Shown: positions 3,250 to 63,420 of the stretch, in pieces
Numbering within the stretch: the first letter of the stretch is position 1
Layout of the letters: each line of letters starts with the position of its first letter
Source: Escherichia coli
GTDB lineage: Bacteria > Pseudomonadota > Gammaproteobacteria > Enterobacterales > Enterobacteriaceae
DNA: 64,000 bases
Direction: 5' to 3' (one strand)
Assembly (NCBI RefSeq): GCF_003991155.1
Contig: NZ_CP031293.1
The notes under the pieces: generated by a model
Told to the model about the DNA's origin: nothing
What the model saw: only the letters and a program-made list of their open reading frames with translations
Databases searched by the model: none
Made by a program: the position numbers and the translations under genes

Positions 3250-3377
3250 GTGGCGTGCTGAGCAGGTGTGATGTTGTTGTCACACCCGGAGCCATTACCC
3301 GATGCGCAAGCTTATCGTGCCTACACATTATCTCAACACACGTAGGCCGGATAAGATGCGCCAGCATCGCATCCGGC

Positions 3378-20189: not shown

Positions 20190-20201
20190 CACGCTACCGC
20201 C
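20190..20201 (-). promoter_or_regulatory. ops element (GGCGGTAGCGTG on the coding strand) within a JUMPstart-like leader of the O-antigen operon
   Basis: Exact reverse complement cacgctaccgcc seen on the + strand in the galF-wzx intergenic region. Confidence 0.8.
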
Positions 20202-20481
20202 CCTGGCTCAACAGCTACCAGCGTACTGCATGCATGTCCTAGTTGTACCTAGCATTAACCGTTATGGTTAGTTCGAAAAGCTTAACTCTGAACGTTTTAC
20301 CAAATCGCTTCAGAGATGGAGAAAATCTCAGCCTCCCACAATAAATGCCTATTGAAAAGTTATTGTTACTCATATTTAGAACGGTATAAAGAAAGAATGA
20401 GGCAATGAGTACAATTAGCCCCACGAATCCTCACCGCCGTTATAATTTTCTTATCAACCGTTACATCCGGTCAGATTTTCA

Positions 20482-24175: not shown

Positions 24176-25396
24176 CTATAAAGCCTGCAGCAAGCTGGCG
24201 AGTTCTCGATTGATCACCTGCTGGTTAAAATCGTGTTCGACTTTTTCGCGAGCACGTTTGATAACCGGAGCCAGTTCGTCGGTGTCCAGTTGGCTAAACG
24301 CCGCCAGTCGTTGCGCCAGTGCGCGAGCATCGTTCTCAGGCACCAACCAGCCGGATTTATCGGCCTCCACCAGTTCAGGAATTCCGCTATGCAGAGTAGA
24401 AACCACCGGAATGCCGACCGCCATCGCTTCCATTAGCGCCACCGGAATGCCTTCCATATCGCCGTCCGCACCCGTTACCGAAGGCAGCAGGAAAACATCC
24501 GCGTCGTCTAGCATCGCTTTCACTTCGTGGCTCGGTTTAAAGCCCGGCATCTCTACCACATCTTCCAGTTGATATTGTTCGATGAGGGTGCGCAGGCGTC
24601 GTTCCCACGGGCCAATGCCGAGGATGCGATAGCGAAATGCCACGCCCTGCTCTTTCAACTGACGGCAGGCTTCGATCGCCACATGCAGGCCTTTTTTCTC
24701 GGTTAAGCGTGCGACGGAAATGATTTCCAGCGGTGTTGCGGGCGCTTTCACCGGACGCGGGCTAAAGCGCGTCATGTCCACGCCCATGCGCGATACGGCG
24801 ATTTTTTCCCTCGGGCATCCCATTTTTTGCAGCCTTCCGGCCCACAGATCGCTGATCGGTAGCATCAGGTCGCCACGGCGGAACAGTTGCTGATATTCGG
24901 GAGTGTAGTGGTTGAGCACTTCCCGACTGGAGATATCAATGCCGTGGAAGATAGTAGCGATTTTGCCGCGAATGATACCCAGTTCCCGTAGTTTTGCTGC
25001 GATTACCCCCGCAGGGCCAAAATGAGCGATAAAGACATCGGCATAAAATGGTGTTGCGACCTGGCCGCAAATGGCAGACAAAATCAGGTTCCGCGACTCA
25101 GCACCATAGCGTTTGAGGTTGAGCGCCTGCCAGGTATTTTTACGATGAATGCCGCGTAAGGTCTGGCTGGCGCGGTGGCGCAGTTTCGCCACTTTGCCCG
25201 TAGGTTCGTCCTGTAACCAGCGGGTTCTGGCGGCAAGGTTATATTTTGTCCATGCCGCGTGGGTGTTTTGTGTGTCGCCTTTTTGCAGCGCGACAATCTC
25301 CACCTCAAAGCCCATATCAATAAACGCGGTAATTTGATTGAGGACGAAGGTTTCCGACGACAGTGGAAATTTCAGTAAAAAGAAGCCGACCTTCAT
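24176..25396 (-). CDS. wcaL: Colanic acid glycosyltransferase WcaL
   Basis: 406-aa GT4-type ORF in conserved order. Confidence 0.9.
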
Positions 25397-26673
25397 TTCG
25401 CCTCCCCGATGCGTTCAAGCACAGATTTCACCATCTGCATTCCCGTCTGACGTTCGCGACTGACGGCTTCGTTAAGTCGCGTGTTCAGTGCCGGAAGCTG
25501 GCCTAAGGTATCCGCAACCATCGCTTGCAGGCTGCCGTCTAATAAATGACGGATATCAATTGCCATCTCTGGTAGCCCCAGTTGTTGCATAATCCCGGCG
25601 GATTTATGTTCATAGTTGATGGCAATCGCCGGAGTGGCAAAGTTCATCGAGATAATGGCAGAGTGCAGGCGCGTACCGACGGTGAGTTCACAGGCCCCCA
25701 GAATTTTGCCCATTTCCAGATCGTTGAGTTCATCCATCACCACGTGGTAACGGGCAGGATCGCTGATGTGCTGGCGAAGATTGAGCGCCACCATGCGGTC
25801 GTCTTTGTTATAGCTGTCGATGCCCGTACAGGTGGAAAGCGCAATCACCTGATACCCTTCGTCGAGAATGCGATTGACCACCCCGGCAAAGGCTTTTTCA
25901 TACGCTTGCTGAGTGGTGCCGAGACGTTTGTCGAACGGTGCCAGTTCGCGCAGGGTAATTGCTACCGTTTTCTGTTGTGCGGCAACGTCCAGCCAGTGTT
26001 GAACGGCATAGCTGGCGGTGAAGTCTTCTGTGTGGTGATCGACCAGCCACGCAGTATCGACGCCATGTTCGACTTTTGCGGTGGTGATATTGCTGCGTTT
26101 CATCAGTTCAAGGCTGACCGATTCGCGCAGGATCAGCGCGTCGCAGTGACCAAAAACGTAGTTCGCCAGTTGGTTAAATTGCTCATCCTGGAATGGACCA
26201 ACGCTGTGACCAATCATAAATAGCGGCTTTTTCGCCATGAAAGTGCAAAGCGCGTGTTCAAACTGCGGCACGCCGTAGAGATCGACAAAAAACGATCCGC
26301 CGACCTGAATAATGGCGTCGTAACCTGACAGCAGGCGCACGAAGTCAGTGAATCCCTGAGCGATGGCGATATTACGCAGCTTGCCAGTGTCGGTGACGCG
26401 TGAGAGCAATACCTGATGCTGATAGCGGCGACGGAGGACTTTTTTAACGCGCCCGACAACGCCCGCCGCGCTGTTGTGTTTTTTCATTTGCAGGAACAGC
26501 GGATCGCCCATTACCGGGCGGTTGAGCAGCCAGGAAGAACTGACCGGATAGCGGCTCATCACGTCCACTTCGGCATGTGGATTGAGGATATTGATGGCAT
26601 CAAGTAAGCCACGCAGGATGGCGCTATCGCCACGATTGCCGCAAGTGTGGTTGCCCAGAATAAGTAATTTCAT
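25393..26673 (-). CDS. wcaK: Colanic acid pyruvyl transferase WcaK
   Basis: 426-aa ORF (MKLLILGNHTCGNRGDSAIL...), polysaccharide pyruvyl transferase-like. Confidence 0.9.
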   Translation of the reverse strand: MKLLILGNHTCGNRGDSAILRGLLDAINILNPHAEVDVMSRYPVSSSWLLNRPVMGDPLFLQMKKHNSAAGVVGRVKKVLRRRYQHQVLLSRVTDTGKLRNIAIAQGFTDFVRLLSGYDAIIQVGGSFFVDLYGVPQFEHALCTFMAKKPLFMIGHSVGPFQDEQFNQLANYVFGHCDALILRESVSLELMKRSNITTAKVEHGVDTAWLVDHHTEDFTASYAVQHWLDVAAQQKTVAITLRELAPFDKRLGTTQQAYEKAFAGVVNRILDEGYQVIALSTCTGIDSYNKDDRMVALNLRQHISDPARYHVVMDELNDLEMGKILGACELTVGTRLHSAIISMNFATPAIAINYEHKSAGIMQQLGLPEMAIDIRHLLDGSLQAMVADTLGQLPALNTRLNEAVSRERQTGMQMVKSVLERIGEAK

Positions 26674-26734
26674 TTTTTCCTCATAAATTTGATGCCAGGT
26701 GAGGCTGTGTTTGTTGTGTTCGTTGCCGTTTTTT

Positions 26735-27312
26735 GCCTGATGCGACGCTAACGCGTCTTATCAGACCTACAAGATCCGAGCACAGAACCGTAGGACGGAT
26801 AAGGCGTTCACGCCGCATCCGGCATTCAGTGCCTGATGCGACGCTGACGCGTCTTATCAGGCCTACAAGACCCGAGCACAGAGCCGTAGGACGGATAAGG
26901 CGTTTTACGCCGCATCCGGCATTCAGTGCCTGATGCGACGCTGACGCGTCTTATCAGGCCTACAAGATCCGAGCACAGAACCGTAGGCCGGATAAGGCGT
27001 TTTACGCCGCATCCGGCATTCAGTGCCTGATGCGACGCTGGCGCGTCTTATCAGGCCTACAAGACCCGAGCACAGCCCCCCAGGACGGATAAGGCGTTTT
27101 ACGCCGCATCCGGCATTCAGTGCCTGATGCGACGCTGACGCGTCTTATCAAGCCTACAAGATCCGAGCACAGAACCGTAGGCCGGATAAGGCGTTTTACG
27201 CCGCATCCGGCATTCAGTGCCTGATGCGACGCTGGCGCGTCTTATCAGGCCTACAAGACCCGAGCACAGCCCCCCAGGACGGATAAGGCGTTTTACGCCG
27301 CATCCGGCAACC
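26735..27312. repeat. Tandem array of about six REP/BIME-like palindromic units (~100 bp each)
   Basis: Repeated gcctgatgcgacgctgacgcgtcttatcaggcctacaag...ccgtaggacggataaggcgtt[tc]acgccgcatccggcattcagt with small variations, between wcaK and wzxC. Confidence 0.9.
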
Positions 27313-27336
27313 GTTGCCGGAACCGAAAACAGCCAT

Positions 27337-28815
27337 TCACCCCGCCCGTAAAAGCATTTTCATTTTTTCGCTGCGACAAAACTGACGCTTCACTTCCACT
27401 ACCAGCGGATGGCGTGACAGCACAATCATCACCACAAACGCCAGCACGCCCGCGGCTATTTGCACCGCCAGCAGCATGCCCAGAGCCATTTGCCCTTTCA
27501 GTACAATGCCCAGCGCATAACTGACCACCAGCGTCGGCAGCGAGAGATAAAACGGCAGCCATAAACTGAGGATGTACTGGCGATAACTGGAACCAAGAAC
27601 CGGTTTAATCATCACGAAGTAACTCAGAATGGTGTTGATAATCTGCACCAGCAGGAAACCGAGCGTGACGCCGATTGCGCCCGCCATCTGCCCACCAATA
27701 ACAATCGCCGGAATAAACAGAAAGGTTTTGAATACGTTGAATTTAAAGCTGATATCGACCCGCGCTTTCGCCATCAGCAGCGAACCAATCGGGTTCCCTA
27801 CTGAGCGCAGCAGCCCCACCACACACAGCAATTGCAGCACCGGAATAATGCTGCTCCACTTCTCACCAAAGACCAGCGGTACAAAGTTATTCGACACCAC
27901 CATCAGCCCCAGCAGCGCCGGAAAGTTGATAATCCCCACCACCGACAGCAGCTTGTAGAAGTTGATGCGCAGCTTTTCGGTGTCGTCCTGAATTTTGGCA
28001 AATGCCGGAAACAACACGCGGGTGATGATCGGATTCAGCTTCATCGGCGGCACAACGGCCACGTTGTACGCCAGGTTGTATCCCCCTGCCACGCCCGCAC
28101 CGAGAATACGCGCCAGCACCAGCGTTGAAAGGTTGGTGTTGAGATAGTTGATGATGCTGTCCGCCGTCAGCCAGGCACCAAAGCGTAAGTTCGGTGCCAC
28201 CGACGCCAGCGAGAAGTGCAGACCGGGGCGATAAATTTTGCGGCCAAAGTAGCCAAACAGCAGCGTTCTTACCGCACTATTGACCAGATAACCGAGGATC
28301 GCGGTCATCGCCAGTGGCCAGAAATGGGCGCTAACCACCGTAAAAGTGAAGCCCGCCAGCACCGCGCTGGTTTCGATCATGCCGATTTTGTTGAACTCCA
28401 GCTCTTTTTGCATCAACGCGCGGAACTGCTGCCCGTGGGGGATCACCACAAACGCCAGCGACAATGTTTTAATCAACGGTGCCAGGTCTGGGTTGTTCAG
28501 CACGTCACCAATGAGATCACTCAACAAAAACACCGCCACGCACACCACAAGCCCCAGCCCGACGTTCAGCCAGTACAACGTGGTAAGTTCCAGGTGACTG
28601 ATTTCTTTTCGCTGAATAATCGAGTTAGCGATACCGAAGTCAGAAAGCGTATCTGCCAGCGCGATGATCACCAGCGACACGGTAAGCAAACCGAACTGGT
28701 GGTTGTCGATAATCCGCGCCAGCACGGTCATCTGCACCAGCCCGAGGCCGATGATGATCACCGTGGCAATCGCCGACCACTTCGCGCCGCTGATGGTTTT
28801 TTCACGTAAGCTCAT
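27337..28815 (-). CDS. wzxC: Colanic acid repeat-unit flippase
   Basis: 492-aa polytopic membrane ORF in conserved position. Confidence 0.9.
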   Translation of the reverse strand: MSLREKTISGAKWSAIATVIIIGLGLVQMTVLARIIDNHQFGLLTVSLVIIALADTLSDFGIANSIIQRKEISHLELTTLYWLNVGLGLVVCVAVFLLSDLIGDVLNNPDLAPLIKTLSLAFVVIPHGQQFRALMQKELEFNKIGMIETSAVLAGFTFTVVSAHFWPLAMTAILGYLVNSAVRTLLFGYFGRKIYRPGLHFSLASVAPNLRFGAWLTADSIINYLNTNLSTLVLARILGAGVAGGYNLAYNVAVVPPMKLNPIITRVLFPAFAKIQDDTEKLRINFYKLLSVVGIINFPALLGLMVVSNNFVPLVFGEKWSSIIPVLQLLCVVGLLRSVGNPIGSLLMAKARVDISFKFNVFKTFLFIPAIVIGGQMAGAIGVTLGFLLVQIINTILSYFVMIKPVLGSSYRQYILSLWLPFYLSLPTLVVSYALGIVLKGQMALGMLLAVQIAAGVLAFVVMIVLSRHPLVVEVKRQFCRSEKMKMLLRAG

Positions 28816-30265: not shown

Positions 30266-31636
30266 TTACTCGTTCAGCAACGTCAGCAGAGTTCGCGTTC
30301 GCGCTTCCATCAGCGGCACATCACCGCGCGATTCCACATTCAACCGCACCACCGGTTCGGTGTTGGAGGAGCGCAGGTTAAAGCGCCAGTCGGCAAAGGT
30401 CATGCTGATGCCATCGGTGCGATCCACCGCCAGCGCCTCACGGCTAAAATGCTGTTCCACGCGGTTAATCGCCTCAACGGGTTGCGCCAGTTTGCTGTTG
30501 ATCTCACCGCTTGCCGGAAACGCGGCCATCCGGTCGCGCACCAGTTCGCCCAGCGTTTTTCCTTTCAGGCACACCAGTTCGGCGACCAGCAGCCACGGGA
30601 TCATGCCGCTGTCGCAGTAAGCGAAATCACGGAAATAGTGGTGGGCGCTCATTTCGCCACCGTAGATGGCGTCTTCCTTGCGCATCCGTTCTTTAATAAA
30701 GGCGTGTCCGGTTTTCGACATTACCGGCGTACCGCCTGCGGCAGTCACCACATCAACGGTGTTCCAGGAGAGACGTGGATCGTGGATGATCTTCGCGCCG
30801 GGATTTTTTTCGAGGAACGCTTCTGCCAGCAAACCGACAATGTAGTAACCCTCGATAAACTGCCCTTTTTCGTCAAACAGGAAACAGCGGTCAAAATCGC
30901 CATCAAAGGCAATGCCCATATCCGCGCCGTGTTTGATGACCGCATTGCGGGTGTCGTCGCGACATTCTGGCAGCAGCGGGTTAGGAATACCGTTGGGGAA
31001 ATTGCCGTCCGGCGTGTTGTGCACTTTGATCAATTCCACAGGTGCGCCGAGGGCGTTAAAGCGGGCTTCGATGGCGTCCACCACCGGACCCGCCGCTCCG
31101 TTCCCGGAGTTAATCACCAGCTTGAGCGGCGTGAGGTTTTTGACGTTGATATAACCGAACAGGTGATCAACGTAAGCGTCACGCAGATTGATTTGCTGAT
31201 AGCGACCGCGTTTGGTTTCATCGACGGGAGGGAAGTCGTTGGCTTCTGCCAGACGCTGGACATCGCGCAGTCCGGTATCACCGCTGATCGGGCGGGCCCC
31301 CTCGCGCACCAGCTTCATGCCGTTATAATCCATCGGGTTATGGCTGGCAGTAACTTCAATGCCACCATCCACACCAAGATGGAACGTGGCGAAATAGATC
31401 TCTTCGGTGCCGGACATACCAATATCCAGCACGTCGACGCCCGCATCCTGTAAACCTTTCGCCAGCGCCAGTTTTAAGGTTTCGCTGGTGAGGCGGACAT
31501 CACCGCCTAACACAATGGTTTTCGGTTTGAGAAATTCGCCATAAGCGCGACCAATGCGCCAGGCAATATCCTCATTCAGTTCTTCGCCTAATTTCCCGCG
31601 AATATCATAGGCTTTAAAGCAGGTTAATTTTTTCAT
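30266..31636 (-). CDS. cpsG: Phosphomannomutase (colanic acid locus copy)
   Basis: 456 aa from MKKLTCF (ORF track extends 16 codons further upstream); near-identical to manB at 7545..8915. Confidence 0.9.
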
Positions 31637-31726
31637 ATCGTTACCCTTTTTCAGGCAATAGTTGGCCCTGACCGAAACGGCCAATTTTGTTTTTGTCGTT
31701 ATTTACATCGCGGTTTCGCATTCATT

Positions 31727-31828
<102 letters not shown>

Positions 31829-42174: not shown

Positions 42175-42250
42175 CTTGCCGGATGCGGCGTGAACGCCTT
42201 ATCCGGCCTACGGGGCGGTGCGAATGCAGGCGTCGTTATTTCGCATCCGA
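42175..42250. repeat. REP-like palindromic unit between wcaA and wzc
   Basis: gccggatgcggcgtgaacgccttatccggcctacg motif. Confidence 0.75.
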
Positions 42251-46167: not shown

Positions 46168-46179
46168 CACGCTACCGCC
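46168..46179 (-). promoter_or_regulatory. ops element (GGCGGTAGCGTG on the coding strand) in the JUMPstart leader of the colanic acid operon
   Basis: Exact reverse complement cacgctaccgcc on the + strand, ~180 nt upstream of the wza start. Confidence 0.8.
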
Positions 46180-46647
46180 CCTGGCTTTTTAGCTACCAAT
46201 ACACTGATTTAGCTTAATTTTTAAAACCCTCTCAACATACAGTCGTTGATGAGAAAGGGTTATTGCGGAAATTAACTTCCGAATATAAGGTGACATTATG
46301 GTAATTGAATATTGGCTCTCCAATAATGCAGGAGGAAGTGTTACAGCTAACGGAATAGCAGGCAAGGTAACAATTCGGCAATTGGCTATTTTTAAGAATT
46401 ATATTAAGTGTCATTCAATATGGTTTTTAGGAGTTTCTTTAGGTTGACAATATTTAATATAGTGTCTCCACATGCGATATTTCTTAAATAATGTTTTATT
46501 ATTACCACTTTTAATTCAGGGATAATGTGAGGTTATAACCCTCAAATAATATGAGATAAATAGTGCTGCAACATTGCATTTTTGCCCCGATTTATCCATG
46601 ATCGAATTGTGACATTTGTCATACAACGAATAGGTTTTGTACTTACT

Positions 46648-61549: not shown

Positions 61550-61730
61550 AAGAAATCCTTTCTTAGAGAATTATTGAGGTCCGGTATCATACCGATTGCA
61601 ATAATGAAATAAGAGCAAACGAAGAAACTTTCAGAATTAGGCCCGGCGGCGCAGAAAATTTTGCTATTCGCCTCGCAAGAACGGAGAGCCGTCGATTGAC
61701 ACTAAGGGCGGAGTGACATAATTTCAGGAG

Positions 61731-61858
61731 TGAGGGTTAGGGAGAGGTTTCCCCCTCCCCCTGGTGTTCTTAGTAAGCCTGGAAGCTAATCACTAAGAGT
61801 ATCACCAGTATGATGACGTGCTTCATCATAACCCTTTCCTTATTAAAAGTCCTCTTCT
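61731..61858 (+). ncRNA. Sib-family antisense sRNA, copy 1 (approximate ends)
   Basis: -35 ttgaca (61696..61701), 17-nt spacer, -10 taattt; transcript fully overlaps the ibs ORF on the opposite strand; ends at GC hairpin plus tttcccgttt. Confidence 0.5.
61770..61829 (-). CDS. ibsA: Ibs-family type I toxin peptide, copy 1 (MMKHVIILVILLVISFQAY)
   Basis: 19-codon hydrophobic ORF antisense to the repeat unit; closely resembles IbsA as remembered. Confidence 0.7.
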   Translation of the reverse strand: MMKHVIILVILLVISFQAY

Positions 61859-62064
61859 CCGGGAGAGGGTTTCCCGTTTCAGCGTCCCGCTGAAATCGTC
61901 GGCTTACCTCCTTTCGCCCTGAATGCAGTCTATCGCTAACGCGTGAACAAAATAGTTTCCTCTGTGATTATTGCGTAACGTCTCGCAAAGAATATTTGCT
62001 GGCAGGATCGCAGACTACAAAGCCTGCGGATTGACAATCTGATTGTGAAGGCATACTTTCAGGA

Positions 62065-62207
62065 GTGAGGGTAGAGCGGGGTTTCCCCCGCCCTGGTAGT
62101 CTTAGTAAGCGGGGAAGCTTATGACTAAGAGCACCACGATGATGAGTATCTTCATCATGACCCTTTCCTTATTTAAGGCCCCTTCCTCGGGAGGGGCTTT
62201 CCCGTTT
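62065..62207 (+). ncRNA. Sib-family antisense sRNA, copy 2 (approximate ends)
   Basis: ttgaca -35 at 62031..62036, tacttt -10; terminator hairpin gccccttcctcgggaggggc plus tttcccgttt. Confidence 0.5.
62102..62158 (-). CDS. Ibs-family type I toxin peptide, copy 2 (MMKILIIVVLLVISFPAY)
   Basis: 18-codon hydrophobic ORF at the equivalent place in repeat unit 2. Confidence 0.7.
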   Translation of the reverse strand: MMKILIIVVLLVISFPAY

Positions 62208-62392
62208 CAGCGTCCCGCTGAAATCGTCGGCCTACCTCCTTTTGCCCTGAATACAGTCTATCGCTAACGCGTGAACAAAATAGTTTCCTCTGTGATTATT
62301 GCGTAACGTCTCGCAAAGAATATTTGCTGGCAGGATCGCAGACTACAAAGCCTGCGGATTGACAATCTGATTGTGAAGGCATACTTTCAGGA

Positions 62393-62535
62393 GTGAGGGT
62401 AGAGCGGGGTTTCCCCCGCCCTGGTAGTCTTAGTAAGCGGGGAAGCTTATGACTAAGAGCACCACGATGATGAGTATCTTCATCATGACCCTTTCCTTAT
62501 TTAAGGCCCCTTCCTCGGGAGGGGCTTTCCCGTTT
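62393..62535 (+). ncRNA. Sib-family antisense sRNA, copy 3 (approximate ends)
   Basis: Same promoter and terminator architecture as copy 2. Confidence 0.5.
62430..62486 (-). CDS. Ibs-family type I toxin peptide, copy 3 (MMKILIIVVLLVISFPAY)
   Basis: 18-codon ORF identical in protein to copy 2. Confidence 0.7.
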   Translation of the reverse strand: MMKILIIVVLLVISFPAY

Positions 62536-62720
62536 CAGCGTCCCGCTGAAATCGTCGGCCTACCTCCTTTTGCCCTGAATACAGTCTATCGCTAACGCGT
62601 GAACAAAATAGTTTCCCCTGTGATTATTGCGTAACGACTCGCAAAGAATATTTGCTGGCAGGATCGCAGACTACAAAGCCTGCGGATTGACAATCTGATT
62701 GTGAAGGCATACTTTCAGGA

Positions 62721-62863
62721 GTGAGGGTAGAGCGGGGTTTCCCCCGCCCTGGTAGTCTTAGTAAGCCGGGAAGCTTATGACTAAGAGCACCACGATGATG
62801 ATCCACTTCATCATGACCCTTTCCTTATTTAAGGCCCCTTCCTCGGGAGGGGCTTTCCCGTTT
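62721..62863 (+). ncRNA. Sib-family antisense sRNA, copy 4 (approximate ends)
   Basis: Same promoter and terminator architecture. Confidence 0.5.
62758..62814 (-). CDS. Ibs-family type I toxin peptide, copy 4 (MMKWIIIVVLLVISFPAY)
   Basis: 18-codon ORF; differs from copies 2 and 3 at positions 4-5. Confidence 0.65.
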   Translation of the reverse strand: MMKWIIIVVLLVISFPAY

Positions 62864-63048
62864 CAGCGTCCCGCTGAAATCATCGGCTTACCTCCTTTCG
62901 CCCTGAATGCAGTCTATCGCTGACTTGCGGATAAAATAGTTTCACATGTGATTATTGCGTGACGTCTCGCAAAGAATATTTGCTGGCAGGATCGCAGACT
63001 GCAAAGCCTGCGGATTGACAATCGGACCGTGAAGGCATACTTTCAGGA

Positions 63049-63191
63049 GTGAGGGTAGAGCGGGGTTTCCCCCGCCCTGGTAGTCTTAGTATGCTGGGTA
63101 GCTAATCACTAAGAGCACCACGATGATGAGTAGCTTCATCATGACCCTTTCCTTATTTAAGGCCCCTTCCTCGGGAGGGGCTTTCCCGTTT
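63049..63191 (+). ncRNA. Sib-family antisense sRNA, copy 5 (approximate ends)
   Basis: ttgaca at 63015..63020; terminator plus tttcccgttt near 63183. Confidence 0.5.
63086..63142 (-). CDS. Ibs-family type I toxin peptide, copy 5 (MMKLLIIVVLLVISYPAY)
   Basis: 18-codon ORF; variant C-terminal region. Confidence 0.65.
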   Translation of the reverse strand: MMKLLIIVVLLVISYPAY

Positions 63192-63420
63192 CAGCGTCCC
63201 GCTGAAATCATCGGCTTACCTCCTTTCGCCCTGAATGCAGTCTATCGCTAACGCGTAGATAAAATAGTTTCCTGTGTTATTACTGGATGCGTGCTCGCAA
63301 AAGTGCCTGCCATTCAGACGATTCCCGACAGTGTTTCATAATTCCTCCATTTTTCTCCCTTATTGGCTGGCTACACTAGTATCATTCCGCGAAACGTTTC
63401 AGGAAGAGAAACTCTTAACG

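Follow-up and report, generated by a model that had tools for sequence, protein, structure and literature searches.

In the Escherichia coli genome analyzed here, the region between wzxC and wcaK carries six tandem units with 12 REP palindromes. Judged by their sequence, these units form a BIME-2-type REP array, composed of Y and Z2 REPs with a short linker, and the array is an expanded six-unit allele of the K-12 element REP144. We favor, with some confidence, a single explanation that joins this identity to a function of the array as a 12-hairpin attenuator and mRNA stabilizer and as a gyrase site. By analogy with characterized REP arrays, attenuation and stabilization are the most likely roles at the wzxC-wcaK junction, and a gyrase site on the array DNA is probable. 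The reading of the array as neutral repeat DNA remains a serious rival to this regulatory explanation. Published work already covers this kind of element as well as the variability of its locus.

Architecture and identity of the array

Tandem Repeats Finder (TRF) placed the array at 26734-27309 of the window, that is, of the whole 64-kb stretch of DNA that was analyzed, with a period of 97 bp, 5.9 copies, 93% matches, no indels and a score of 1005. A repeat search found five in-register copies spaced 97 bp. The array had been noticed from the letters alone at 26735-27312, which is essentially the TRF span, and the self-alignment proposed there as a check for periodicity was run: both searches show head-to-tail repeats of 97 bp. 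The point differences cited in the same place (GCTAACG, GCTGACG and GCTGGCG) are found among the units. The window holds only two large tandem arrays, of which this is one, and its REPs elsewhere are limited to three solo copies. The components of the array are as follows.

26674..27336, minus strand: wzxC-wcaK intercistronic region, 663 bp
26734..27309: whole BIME-2 array, 6 units and 12 REP palindromes (TRF)
26734-26829, 26830-26926, 26927-27023, 27024-27120, 27121-27217 and 27218-27309: units u1 to u6, of 96, 97, 97, 97, 97 and 92 nt, respectively
26734..26770, plus strand: Z2 REP of unit 1, TGCCTGATGCGACGCTAACGCGTCTTATCAGACCTAC (Z2 consensus scan)
26830-26866, 26927-26963, 27024-27060, 27121-27157 and 27218-27254, plus strand: the other five Z2 REPs
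26790..26824, minus strand: Y REP of unit 1, reading TGCCGGATGCGGCG...CCTAC on this (mRNA) strand
26886-26921, 26983-27018, 27080-27115, 27177-27212 and 27274-27309, minus strand: the other five Y REPs
26771..26789: 19-nt tail-to-tail linker AAGAYCCGAGCACAGARCC, between the CTAC and GTAG ends, once per unit
26825..26829: 5-nt head-to-head linker TTCAG, at the 'S'-type position, between successive units

On the plus strand, each unit runs from a 37-nt palindrome, TGCCTGATGCGACGCTGRCGCGTCTTATCAGGCCTAC, through the 19-nt linker and an inverted 36-nt palindrome, GTAGGMCGGATAAGGCGTTTTACGCCGCATCCGGCA, to TTCAG. REP and inverted REP alternate in all units, and TTCAG separates the inverted Y from the next Z2 at all five internal junctions. 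The 19-nt tail-to-tail linker is conserved across units, and in u4 and u6 it ends in ...CACAGCCCC. The repeats align with Y and Z2 REPs, which bears out the REP/BIME identity suggested at the outset: the 12 REPs, six of each type, differ from their consensus at 0-3 positions, and the Z2 REPs at 0-1 by pattern scan. Their stems are imperfect, with mismatches present in the REP hairpins, and the wca mRNA carries the Z2 REPs as the reverse complement. The conserved GTAG/CTAC is kept by 10 of the 12 REPs; the Y REPs of u4 and u6, read on the plus strand, have CCAG in place of GTAG.

A BIME-2 is defined by z2 and y REPs in alternating orientation, a short S linker and tandem copies (Ton-Hoang et al., PMC3333891), and its flanking tail-to-tail motif is of type s, l or r. 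The array shares with this family (in the nomenclature of Gilson, Bachellier and Hofnung) the Y and Z2 alternation, the short head-to-head linker, the tandem amplification, an extragenic site and a strain-variable copy number; it lies entirely inside the wzxC-wcaK gap, and the number of its units varies among strains. No structural difference from the family was noted. BIME-2 elements are the gyrase targets of Espeli & Boccard 1997. BIME-1, in contrast, consists of z1 and y REPs in a single copy with a long L linker that contains an IHF site. This class was ruled out by the Z2 and Y REPs, the tandem amplification, the 5-nt linker and the lack of the IHF core WATCARNNNNTTR. IHF binding had been offered as one possible role of the array; since the IHF site belongs to BIME-1 and no WATCARNNNNTTR core occurs on either strand of the wzxC-wcaK gap, this option is not supported. 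A CRISPR-like array was rejected on inspection, in that the segments between the palindromes are themselves repeated and form no unique spacers.

The K-12 counterpart of the array is catalogued as REP144, the REP of the wzxC/wcaK tandem gene pair (Harris et al. 2026 supplement, bioRxiv 10.64898/2026.03.23.713779), and the MG1655 record NC_000913.3 lists no REP feature at this locus. REP144 (MG1655, 2118467-2118652) has the same locus, flanks, Z2/Y units, 5-nt and 19-nt linkers and bracketing sequence, whereas it comprises 2 units and 4 REPs in a 275-bp gap, as against 6 units and 12 REPs in the 663-bp gap of this strain, and lacks the CCAG variant of the Y REP seen in u4 and u6.

The closest likeness at another locus is REP325, which lies in the yjdM-yjdN gap of K-12, is the source of naRNA1-6 and was published as six repeats of Y and Z2 (Qian 2015, PMC4550694); our repeat analysis gave it 5.8 units. 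It likewise consists of six tandem units of Z2 and inverted Y with 12 hairpins, in a gap of 657 bp between co-oriented genes of one operon, and when the two arrays are compared side by side, the palindromes at wzxC-wcaK prove to be of the same Z2 and Y types as those of REP325 and to share their layout. The two arrays differ in period (100 bp in REP325, 97 bp here), in linkers (17 and 11 nt in REP325, 19 and 5 nt here, with unrelated sequences), in unit uniformity (96% matches in REP325, 93% here) and in their orientation relative to transcription, which is opposite. The functional measurements cited below were made on REP325.

The array was described in the sequence-only reading as unusually long, which holds in part. 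Its six units are the highest copy number observed at the locus (in 3 of the 59 sampled genomes), and its 12 palindromic units equal the maximum stated for the 355 annotated REPs of K-12 (Harris et al., bioRxiv 10.64898/2026.03.23.713779). However, REP325 is nearly its equal, and the prpE-codB BIME array of O157:H7, a tandem Y/Z2-type array at another locus between other genes, is longer, with 7.6 units of 94 bp. The length of the array is at the top of the known range, not beyond it.

Copy number and turnover among strains

The copy-number variation predicted by the sequence-only reading was examined by comparing unit number among E. coli strains, and it is extensive: 0-6 units occur in 59 sampled genomes. 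The query joined 1 kb of flank from either side, without the array itself, and matched 4,696 of 5,426 complete E. coli genomes. From the ranking of these matches, 60 rows at even spacing were taken, of which 59 were full-length, and array size was determined from the span. In this ranked, non-random sample from a clinically biased database, no unit was found in 8 of the 59 genomes (about 1 in 7), one in 11, two in 15 (K-12 included), three in 2, four in 7, five in 8 and six in 3, namely this strain, Nissle 1917 and one other; a further genome had an internally deleted unit, and 4 had an unrelated sequence in the gap. The 13 alleles that were read at sequence level had unit counts in agreement with their spans. 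No allele of more than six units was present among the 59 sampled genomes. A synthetic 10-unit query returned 4- and 6-unit genomes alike at 100% coverage, without discriminating between them, and no span above six units appeared among the 40 matches listed. Strain variability at this locus was already published in 2011, when O157 strains were described as carrying REP indels of different sizes between wcaK and wzxC (Iguchi et al. 2011, PMC3158064).

The units of the array also record how it changes. Pairwise comparison gave no differences between u4 and u6 and one difference between u3 and u5; therefore, the last two units represent a recent block duplication. This block and the repeat that brackets the array are located as follows.

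27121..27309: u5-u6 block, a 194-bp copy of u3-u4 and the most recent duplication
26721..26728 (left) and 27312-27319 (right): 8-bp direct repeat CGTTGCCG, bracketing the array

The same step is visible among close relatives. Flanks with at least 99.5% identity to those of the window occur in 37 genomes, of which 33 have a six-unit span and 4 a four-unit span; the latter are shorter by exactly 194 bp, which is one two-unit block, and the two that were read at sequence level consist of exactly u1-u2-u3-u4. In the Nissle array, u2 equals u4, and u1, u3 and u5 are near-identical. These unit relationships differ from those found here, which indicates that six-unit alleles arose independently at least twice.

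Across strains, the units combine a small number of variant sites in mosaic fashion, a pattern that fits unequal crossing-over or gene conversion. The array would thus grow and shrink through unequal homologous recombination or replication slippage between its units. TnpA-REP needs GTAG for REP binding (PMC3333891), and this motif is absent from the Y REPs of the duplicated u4 and u6. Because the duplicated block includes such a Y REP, we infer that a homologous mechanism is favored over transposase-driven amplification for the 194-bp step.

At the boundaries, occupied alleles read GTTCGTTGCCG-TTTTT-array-ACC-GTTGCCGGAACC. Array-free E. coli alleles read GTTCGTTGCCGGAACC, with a single copy of CGTTGCCG; they may represent the ancestral state or result from a microhomology deletion. 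In E. whittamii, a lone Z2 occupies the array position.

Operon setting, RNA folding and proposed action

wzxC (27337-28815) and wcaK (25393-26673) are both on the minus strand, according to the annotation of the 100% identical sequence NZ_CP029747.1 (E. coli 2016C-3878), and the array accordingly lies between the two genes inside the colanic-acid (wca) operon, as first described. The first REP begins 27 nt past the wzxC stop codon, and the last REP ends 60 nt before the wcaK ATG, which has the Shine-Dalgarno sequence GAGGA. Ribosome stalling reportedly requires that the REP lie no more than about 15 nt from the stop codon. Stalling by a stop-proximal REP is therefore unlikely at wzxC, given the 27-nt spacing.

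The sense strand of the gap folds far more stably than expected, with a minimum free energy of -333 kcal/mol against a mean of -253 for shuffled sequences (z = -11.8). Single hairpins on this strand are predicted at about -22 kcal/mol (Y) and -19 kcal/mol (Z2). Consensus scans of 26300-27700 returned 0 terminator-like sites against 1.5 expected and no sigma-70 promoter on either strand, both of which are weak negatives. Moreover, an A-run, not a U-run, follows the last hairpin on the mRNA strand. An intrinsic terminator was rejected on the absence of terminator-like sites and on this A-run, and an internal wcaK promoter in the gap on the result of the scan. With neither a terminator nor a promoter found around the gap, wcaK depends on read-through.

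The wca leader contains the following element.

46168..46206, minus strand: JUMPstart/ops element GGCGGTAGCGTG, wca leader upstream of wza, exact ops match

There are 2 exact ops matches in the window against 0.08 expected, and the JUMPstart scores 57.3 bits with Rfam RF01707, above the gathering score of 35. Antitermination of wca through JUMPstart and RfaH is stated in PMC9976346. Given the position of the array in the operon, the leader ops and the lack of a promoter- or terminator-like site, wca mRNA should carry all 12 hairpins.

In the explanation that we favor, the array would be co-transcribed within the roughly 23-kb wca operon, so that the mRNA would present 12 stable hairpins between the wzxC stop and the wcaK start. 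These hairpins would serve as leaky points of termination or pausing, in part dependent on Rho, that reduce transcription into wcaK-wcaL-wcaM, and as roadblocks to 3'->5' exonucleases that stabilize the upstream wza...wzxC message. Both attenuation and stabilization would rise with unit number, and the six-unit allele is inferred to be a stronger attenuator and decay barrier than the two-unit REP144 of K-12. RfaH, recruited at ops/JUMPstart, would blunt the Rho-dependent part. On the DNA, the Y REPs would be probable sites of gyrase binding and cleavage.

The analogy draws on REP325, which of the related arrays is the nearest one with experimental results. REP325 stabilizes the upstream mRNA, attenuates the downstream gene about tenfold and yields a ladder of hairpin-terminated transcripts; the ratio of yjdM to yjdN expression is about 35 in its presence and about 1 after its deletion. 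Bicyclomycin-sensitive (Rho-dependent) termination was observed with the full 12-hairpin array only, not with fragments of 2-4 hairpins. Genome-wide, expression of tandem gene pairs separated by REPs is biased toward the upstream gene. BIME-2 elements are enriched in gyrase cleavage sites, mainly in Y REPs, and independently of transcription (PMC6379681).

Other observations call for caution in carrying these results over to wzxC-wcaK. In RNA-seq data for uninduced K-12, which has two units, the base means are 36 for wzxC and 91 for wcaK (bioRxiv 10.64898/2026.03.23.713779), and thus no upstream bias exists across REP144. In the same study, the sole in-vitro Rho-binding peak adjoining REP144 is on the antisense strand. 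Since the array is inverted relative to transcription in comparison with REP325, the REP325 results may not transfer quantitatively. The Rho-dependent effect may even be negligible with an RfaH-modified RNA polymerase. Array-free alleles occur in genomes with wzxC and wcaK annotated intact; together with the unrelated repeats and the short gaps of most genera described below, they indicate that no particular copy number is required for colanic-acid synthesis.

Recurrent repeats at the junction and rival readings

We compared the junction in 76 Enterobacteriaceae species genomes. Typically, wzxC and wcaK lie 14-40 bp apart (median about 30 bp), and the gap between them exceeds 80 bp in 19 of 76 species. 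The corresponding counts are 2 of 75 for wcaJ-wzxC, 0 of 80 for wcaK-wcaL and 0 of 75 for wcaL-wcaM. The long gaps contain Y/Z2 REPs or BIMEs in Escherichia, other REP pairs in Citrobacter and GC-rich boxC-like palindromes in Lelliottia, Pluralibacter, Pseudenterobacter, Phytobacter and others; a boxC-like palindrome is also present in one E. coli allele class. The wzxC-wcaK junction is a recurrent landing site for repeats, and on the simplest reading they recur there since every other junction in this part of the operon is overlapping or very tightly spaced.

These comparisons bear directly on the rival readings. The array may be selfish or neutral repeat DNA without a selected role, a tolerated insertion whose unit number drifts by unequal recombination; we hold this to be a real possibility, though one with odds somewhat against it. 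It would account for the occurrence of all copy numbers from 0 to 6, of a partial unit and of a boxC-like filler with wzxC and wcaK annotated intact, for a gap of 14-40 bp in most Enterobacteriaceae and for the lack of an upstream bias across REP144 in the K-12 RNA-seq data. It would also account for the choice of junction, in that the neighboring junctions overlap or are separated by 1-12 bp, and an insertion there would damage translational coupling. However, 12 hairpins of about -20 kcal/mol in an mRNA are unlikely to be without effect on decay or elongation, the structurally equivalent REP325 shows roughly tenfold effects, and at least three unrelated repeat families colonized the junction independently. 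If an RNA barrier were advantageous at this junction, the presence of unrelated palindromic families at one site in different genera would be explained. On that argument, unit number could act as a strain-specific 'dial' under selection, setting the expression of wcaK (pyruvyl transferase), wcaL and wcaM against that of wza...wzxC, but we regard such selection as rather improbable. The main significance of the array could instead lie in recombination, as a junction whose repeats promote or mark breakpoints for exchange of the adjoining O-antigen/colanic-acid region between lineages, which we consider unlikely. In the L014 allele class, whose gap sequence is different, divergence from the window is 3.2% on the wzxC flank as against 0.5% on the wcaK flank, in agreement with the break in similarity reported, together with REP indels, for the wcaK-wzxC gap (Iguchi 2011, PMC3158064); and in Escherichia sp. 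MOD1-EC7003, a REP cluster joins the end of a wzc-like gene directly to wcaK. Yet among the 13 loci compared, only one pair is clearly discordant, and the region flanking the O-antigen locus recombines so heavily that breakpoints may fall in the gap by chance. Moreover, recombination would be a consequence of repetitiveness and not a mechanism of action, and it is compatible with the attenuator and stabilizer explanation.

Two further readings treat the array as coding for a product, either an RNA or a peptide, from the following features.

26986..27057, plus strand: strongest match to RF02564 (naRNA4; Rfam)
26793-26863, 26889-26960, 27083-27154 and 27180-27251, plus strand: the other four RF02564 matches
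26733..26933, plus strand: 66-aa ORF of repeat sequence with a TTG start, antisense to the operon

The array might encode nucleoid-associated sRNAs like naRNA4, which with HU would bridge cruciforms and condense the chromosome. This reading draws on the original model (PMC4550694) and on the five RF02564 matches, each of which covers one Y-S-Z2 junction with a score of 63.5-78 bits, above the gathering score of 59.5. However, these matches are antisense to the operon, in a strand where no promoter-like site was found, and the transcribed (mRNA) strand scores 45-54 bits, below the threshold; the strong matches of REP325, by contrast (95-111 bits), are on the sense strand of yjdMN. RF02564 also matches the Y/Z2 junctions of REP144 and of the prpE-codB array, and the model therefore reports REP homology, not sRNA genes. 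Furthermore, a 2026 study found no nucleoid compaction, stable ternary complex or REP-REP contacts from REP325/naRNA4 (bioRxiv 10.64898/2026.03.23.713779). We consider an naRNA4 gene highly improbable, and rejected it on strand, promoter and this re-evaluation. The chance that the 66-aa ORF is a real small-protein gene is smaller still. An open frame of 66 codons does exist, but no promoter-like site was found for it, and it is impossible in alleles with no unit. The ORF had been called spurious from the start, and we agree: it starts with TTG, runs antisense, is composed entirely of repeat sequence and is unannotated on the identical NZ_CP029747.1.

The explanation that joins the BIME-2 identity to attenuation, mRNA stabilization and gyrase binding has consequences that can be stated conditionally. 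If the REP325 findings transfer, strains with 0-6 units would differ in their wzxC:wcaKLM ratio while coding sequences and promoter stay unchanged, and unit number could in this way contribute modestly to differences in colanic-acid production or pyruvylation. The natural alleles of 0-6 units constitute a dosage series in which the scaling of REP-mediated attenuation with hairpin number could be followed. A recombination breakpoint, beside the O-antigen locus, likewise appears to lie at this junction. The mildly new leads are limited to the dosage effect of unit number on wcaKLM and the recurrent colonization of the junction by unrelated repeats.

Beyond annotation hygiene, the array is of little importance. 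It can confuse assemblers, ORF callers, which report the 66-aa ORF, and Rfam annotation, which places five 'naRNA4 genes' on the strand that is not transcribed. The peptide of this ORF repeats itself (PDATLTRLIRPTR... occurs twice), because u1 is 96 nt long, a multiple of three.

Array boundaries and E. coli gap alleles

The six-unit BIME-2 array in the wzxC-wcaK gap is bracketed by an 8-bp direct repeat, CGTTGCCG, at window 26721-26728 and 27312-27319, and array-free E. coli alleles such as L012 carry a single copy. The bracketing pair may be a duplicated target site, although REP/BIME insertion is not known to generate these, or it may be the microhomology at which precise deletion of the array took place. 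Half-unit alleles were also identified. In E. coli FDN-9 (L013) an internal deletion at a CGA microhomology has removed the stretch from inside Z2 to the linker and left the Y REP alone, and E. whittamii (L018) keeps the Z2 REP alone.

Another E. coli class, comprising L014 (NZ_CM187540.1) and the flank-search matches H87-H89, carries ~160 bp of unrelated sequence in place of the BIME, including a GC-rich boxC-like palindrome (CCCCTCGCCCCCAGGGGAGAGGGTTAGGGTGAGGGGG). L014 diverges from the window by 0.5% on the wcaK side but by 3.2% on the wzxC side. The search with the 2-kb wcaK/wzxC flank (array removed) revealed no megablast match in 730 of the 5,426 complete E. coli genomes, and in most matching genomes wcaK/wzxC diverges from the window by 3-4%, seemingly a high level for core genes of this species.

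The wzxC-wcaK junction across Enterobacteriaceae

Across 76 Enterobacteriaceae species (L017-L096), the wzxC-wcaK junction spans 14-40 bp as a rule. REP pairs occupy it in Citrobacter amalonaticus, and boxC-like repeats were found there in Pseudenterobacter, Pluralibacter, Lelliottia, Phytobacter, Kosakonia and Enterobacter kpr-6. These are examples of independent colonisation of the junction by unrelated palindromic repeat families. In the same comparison, expansion was almost never seen at three neighbouring junctions.

In Escherichia sp. MOD1-EC7003 (L089, 2100-2500), wcaK is preceded by a REP cluster whose last element is a Y-linker-Z2 unit, and this cluster comes immediately after a Wzc-like C-terminus (...YEYEYKSDAK*). 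wzxC was not found within 2.5 kb upstream. This arrangement points to a large deletion or rearrangement whose joint carries REP clusters.

Other repeats and RNA elements in the window

Outside the array, the window holds three solo REPs, and two of the gaps concerned, cpsG-cpsB and wcaA-wzc, are also REP sites in Iguchi 2011 (PMC3158064). Rfam searches identified two JUMPstart/ops elements (GGCGGTAGCGTG), each exceeding the RF01707 gathering score, as well as an 'algC RNA' motif and a Sib array.

Solo REPs and RNA elements in the window
3342-3377, minus strand, solo REP
20190-20228, minus strand, JUMPstart/ops element ahead of the O-antigen genes
31641-31690, minus strand, 'algC RNA' motif (RF02929, 78 bits; gathering score 33.8)
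31727-31762, plus strand, solo Z2 REP in the cpsG-cpsB gap, adjoining the 'algC RNA' motif
42178-42211, plus strand, solo REP in the wcaA-wzc gap
46168-46206, minus strand, JUMPstart/ops element upstream of wza, within the wca leader
61696-63157, plus strand, five tandem copies of Sib antitoxin RNA (RF00113, 139-150 bits)

The 'algC RNA' motif lies at the 5' end of ORF 30266-31684, which by position is cpsG/manB. TRF resolved the Sib repeats into 4.8 copies with a 328-bp period (61717-63282). The K-12 locus has two copies, sibA and sibB, with the Ibs toxin peptides encoded on the strand opposite the Sib RNAs; the five-copy locus would therefore amount to an expansion of this type I toxin-antitoxin array.
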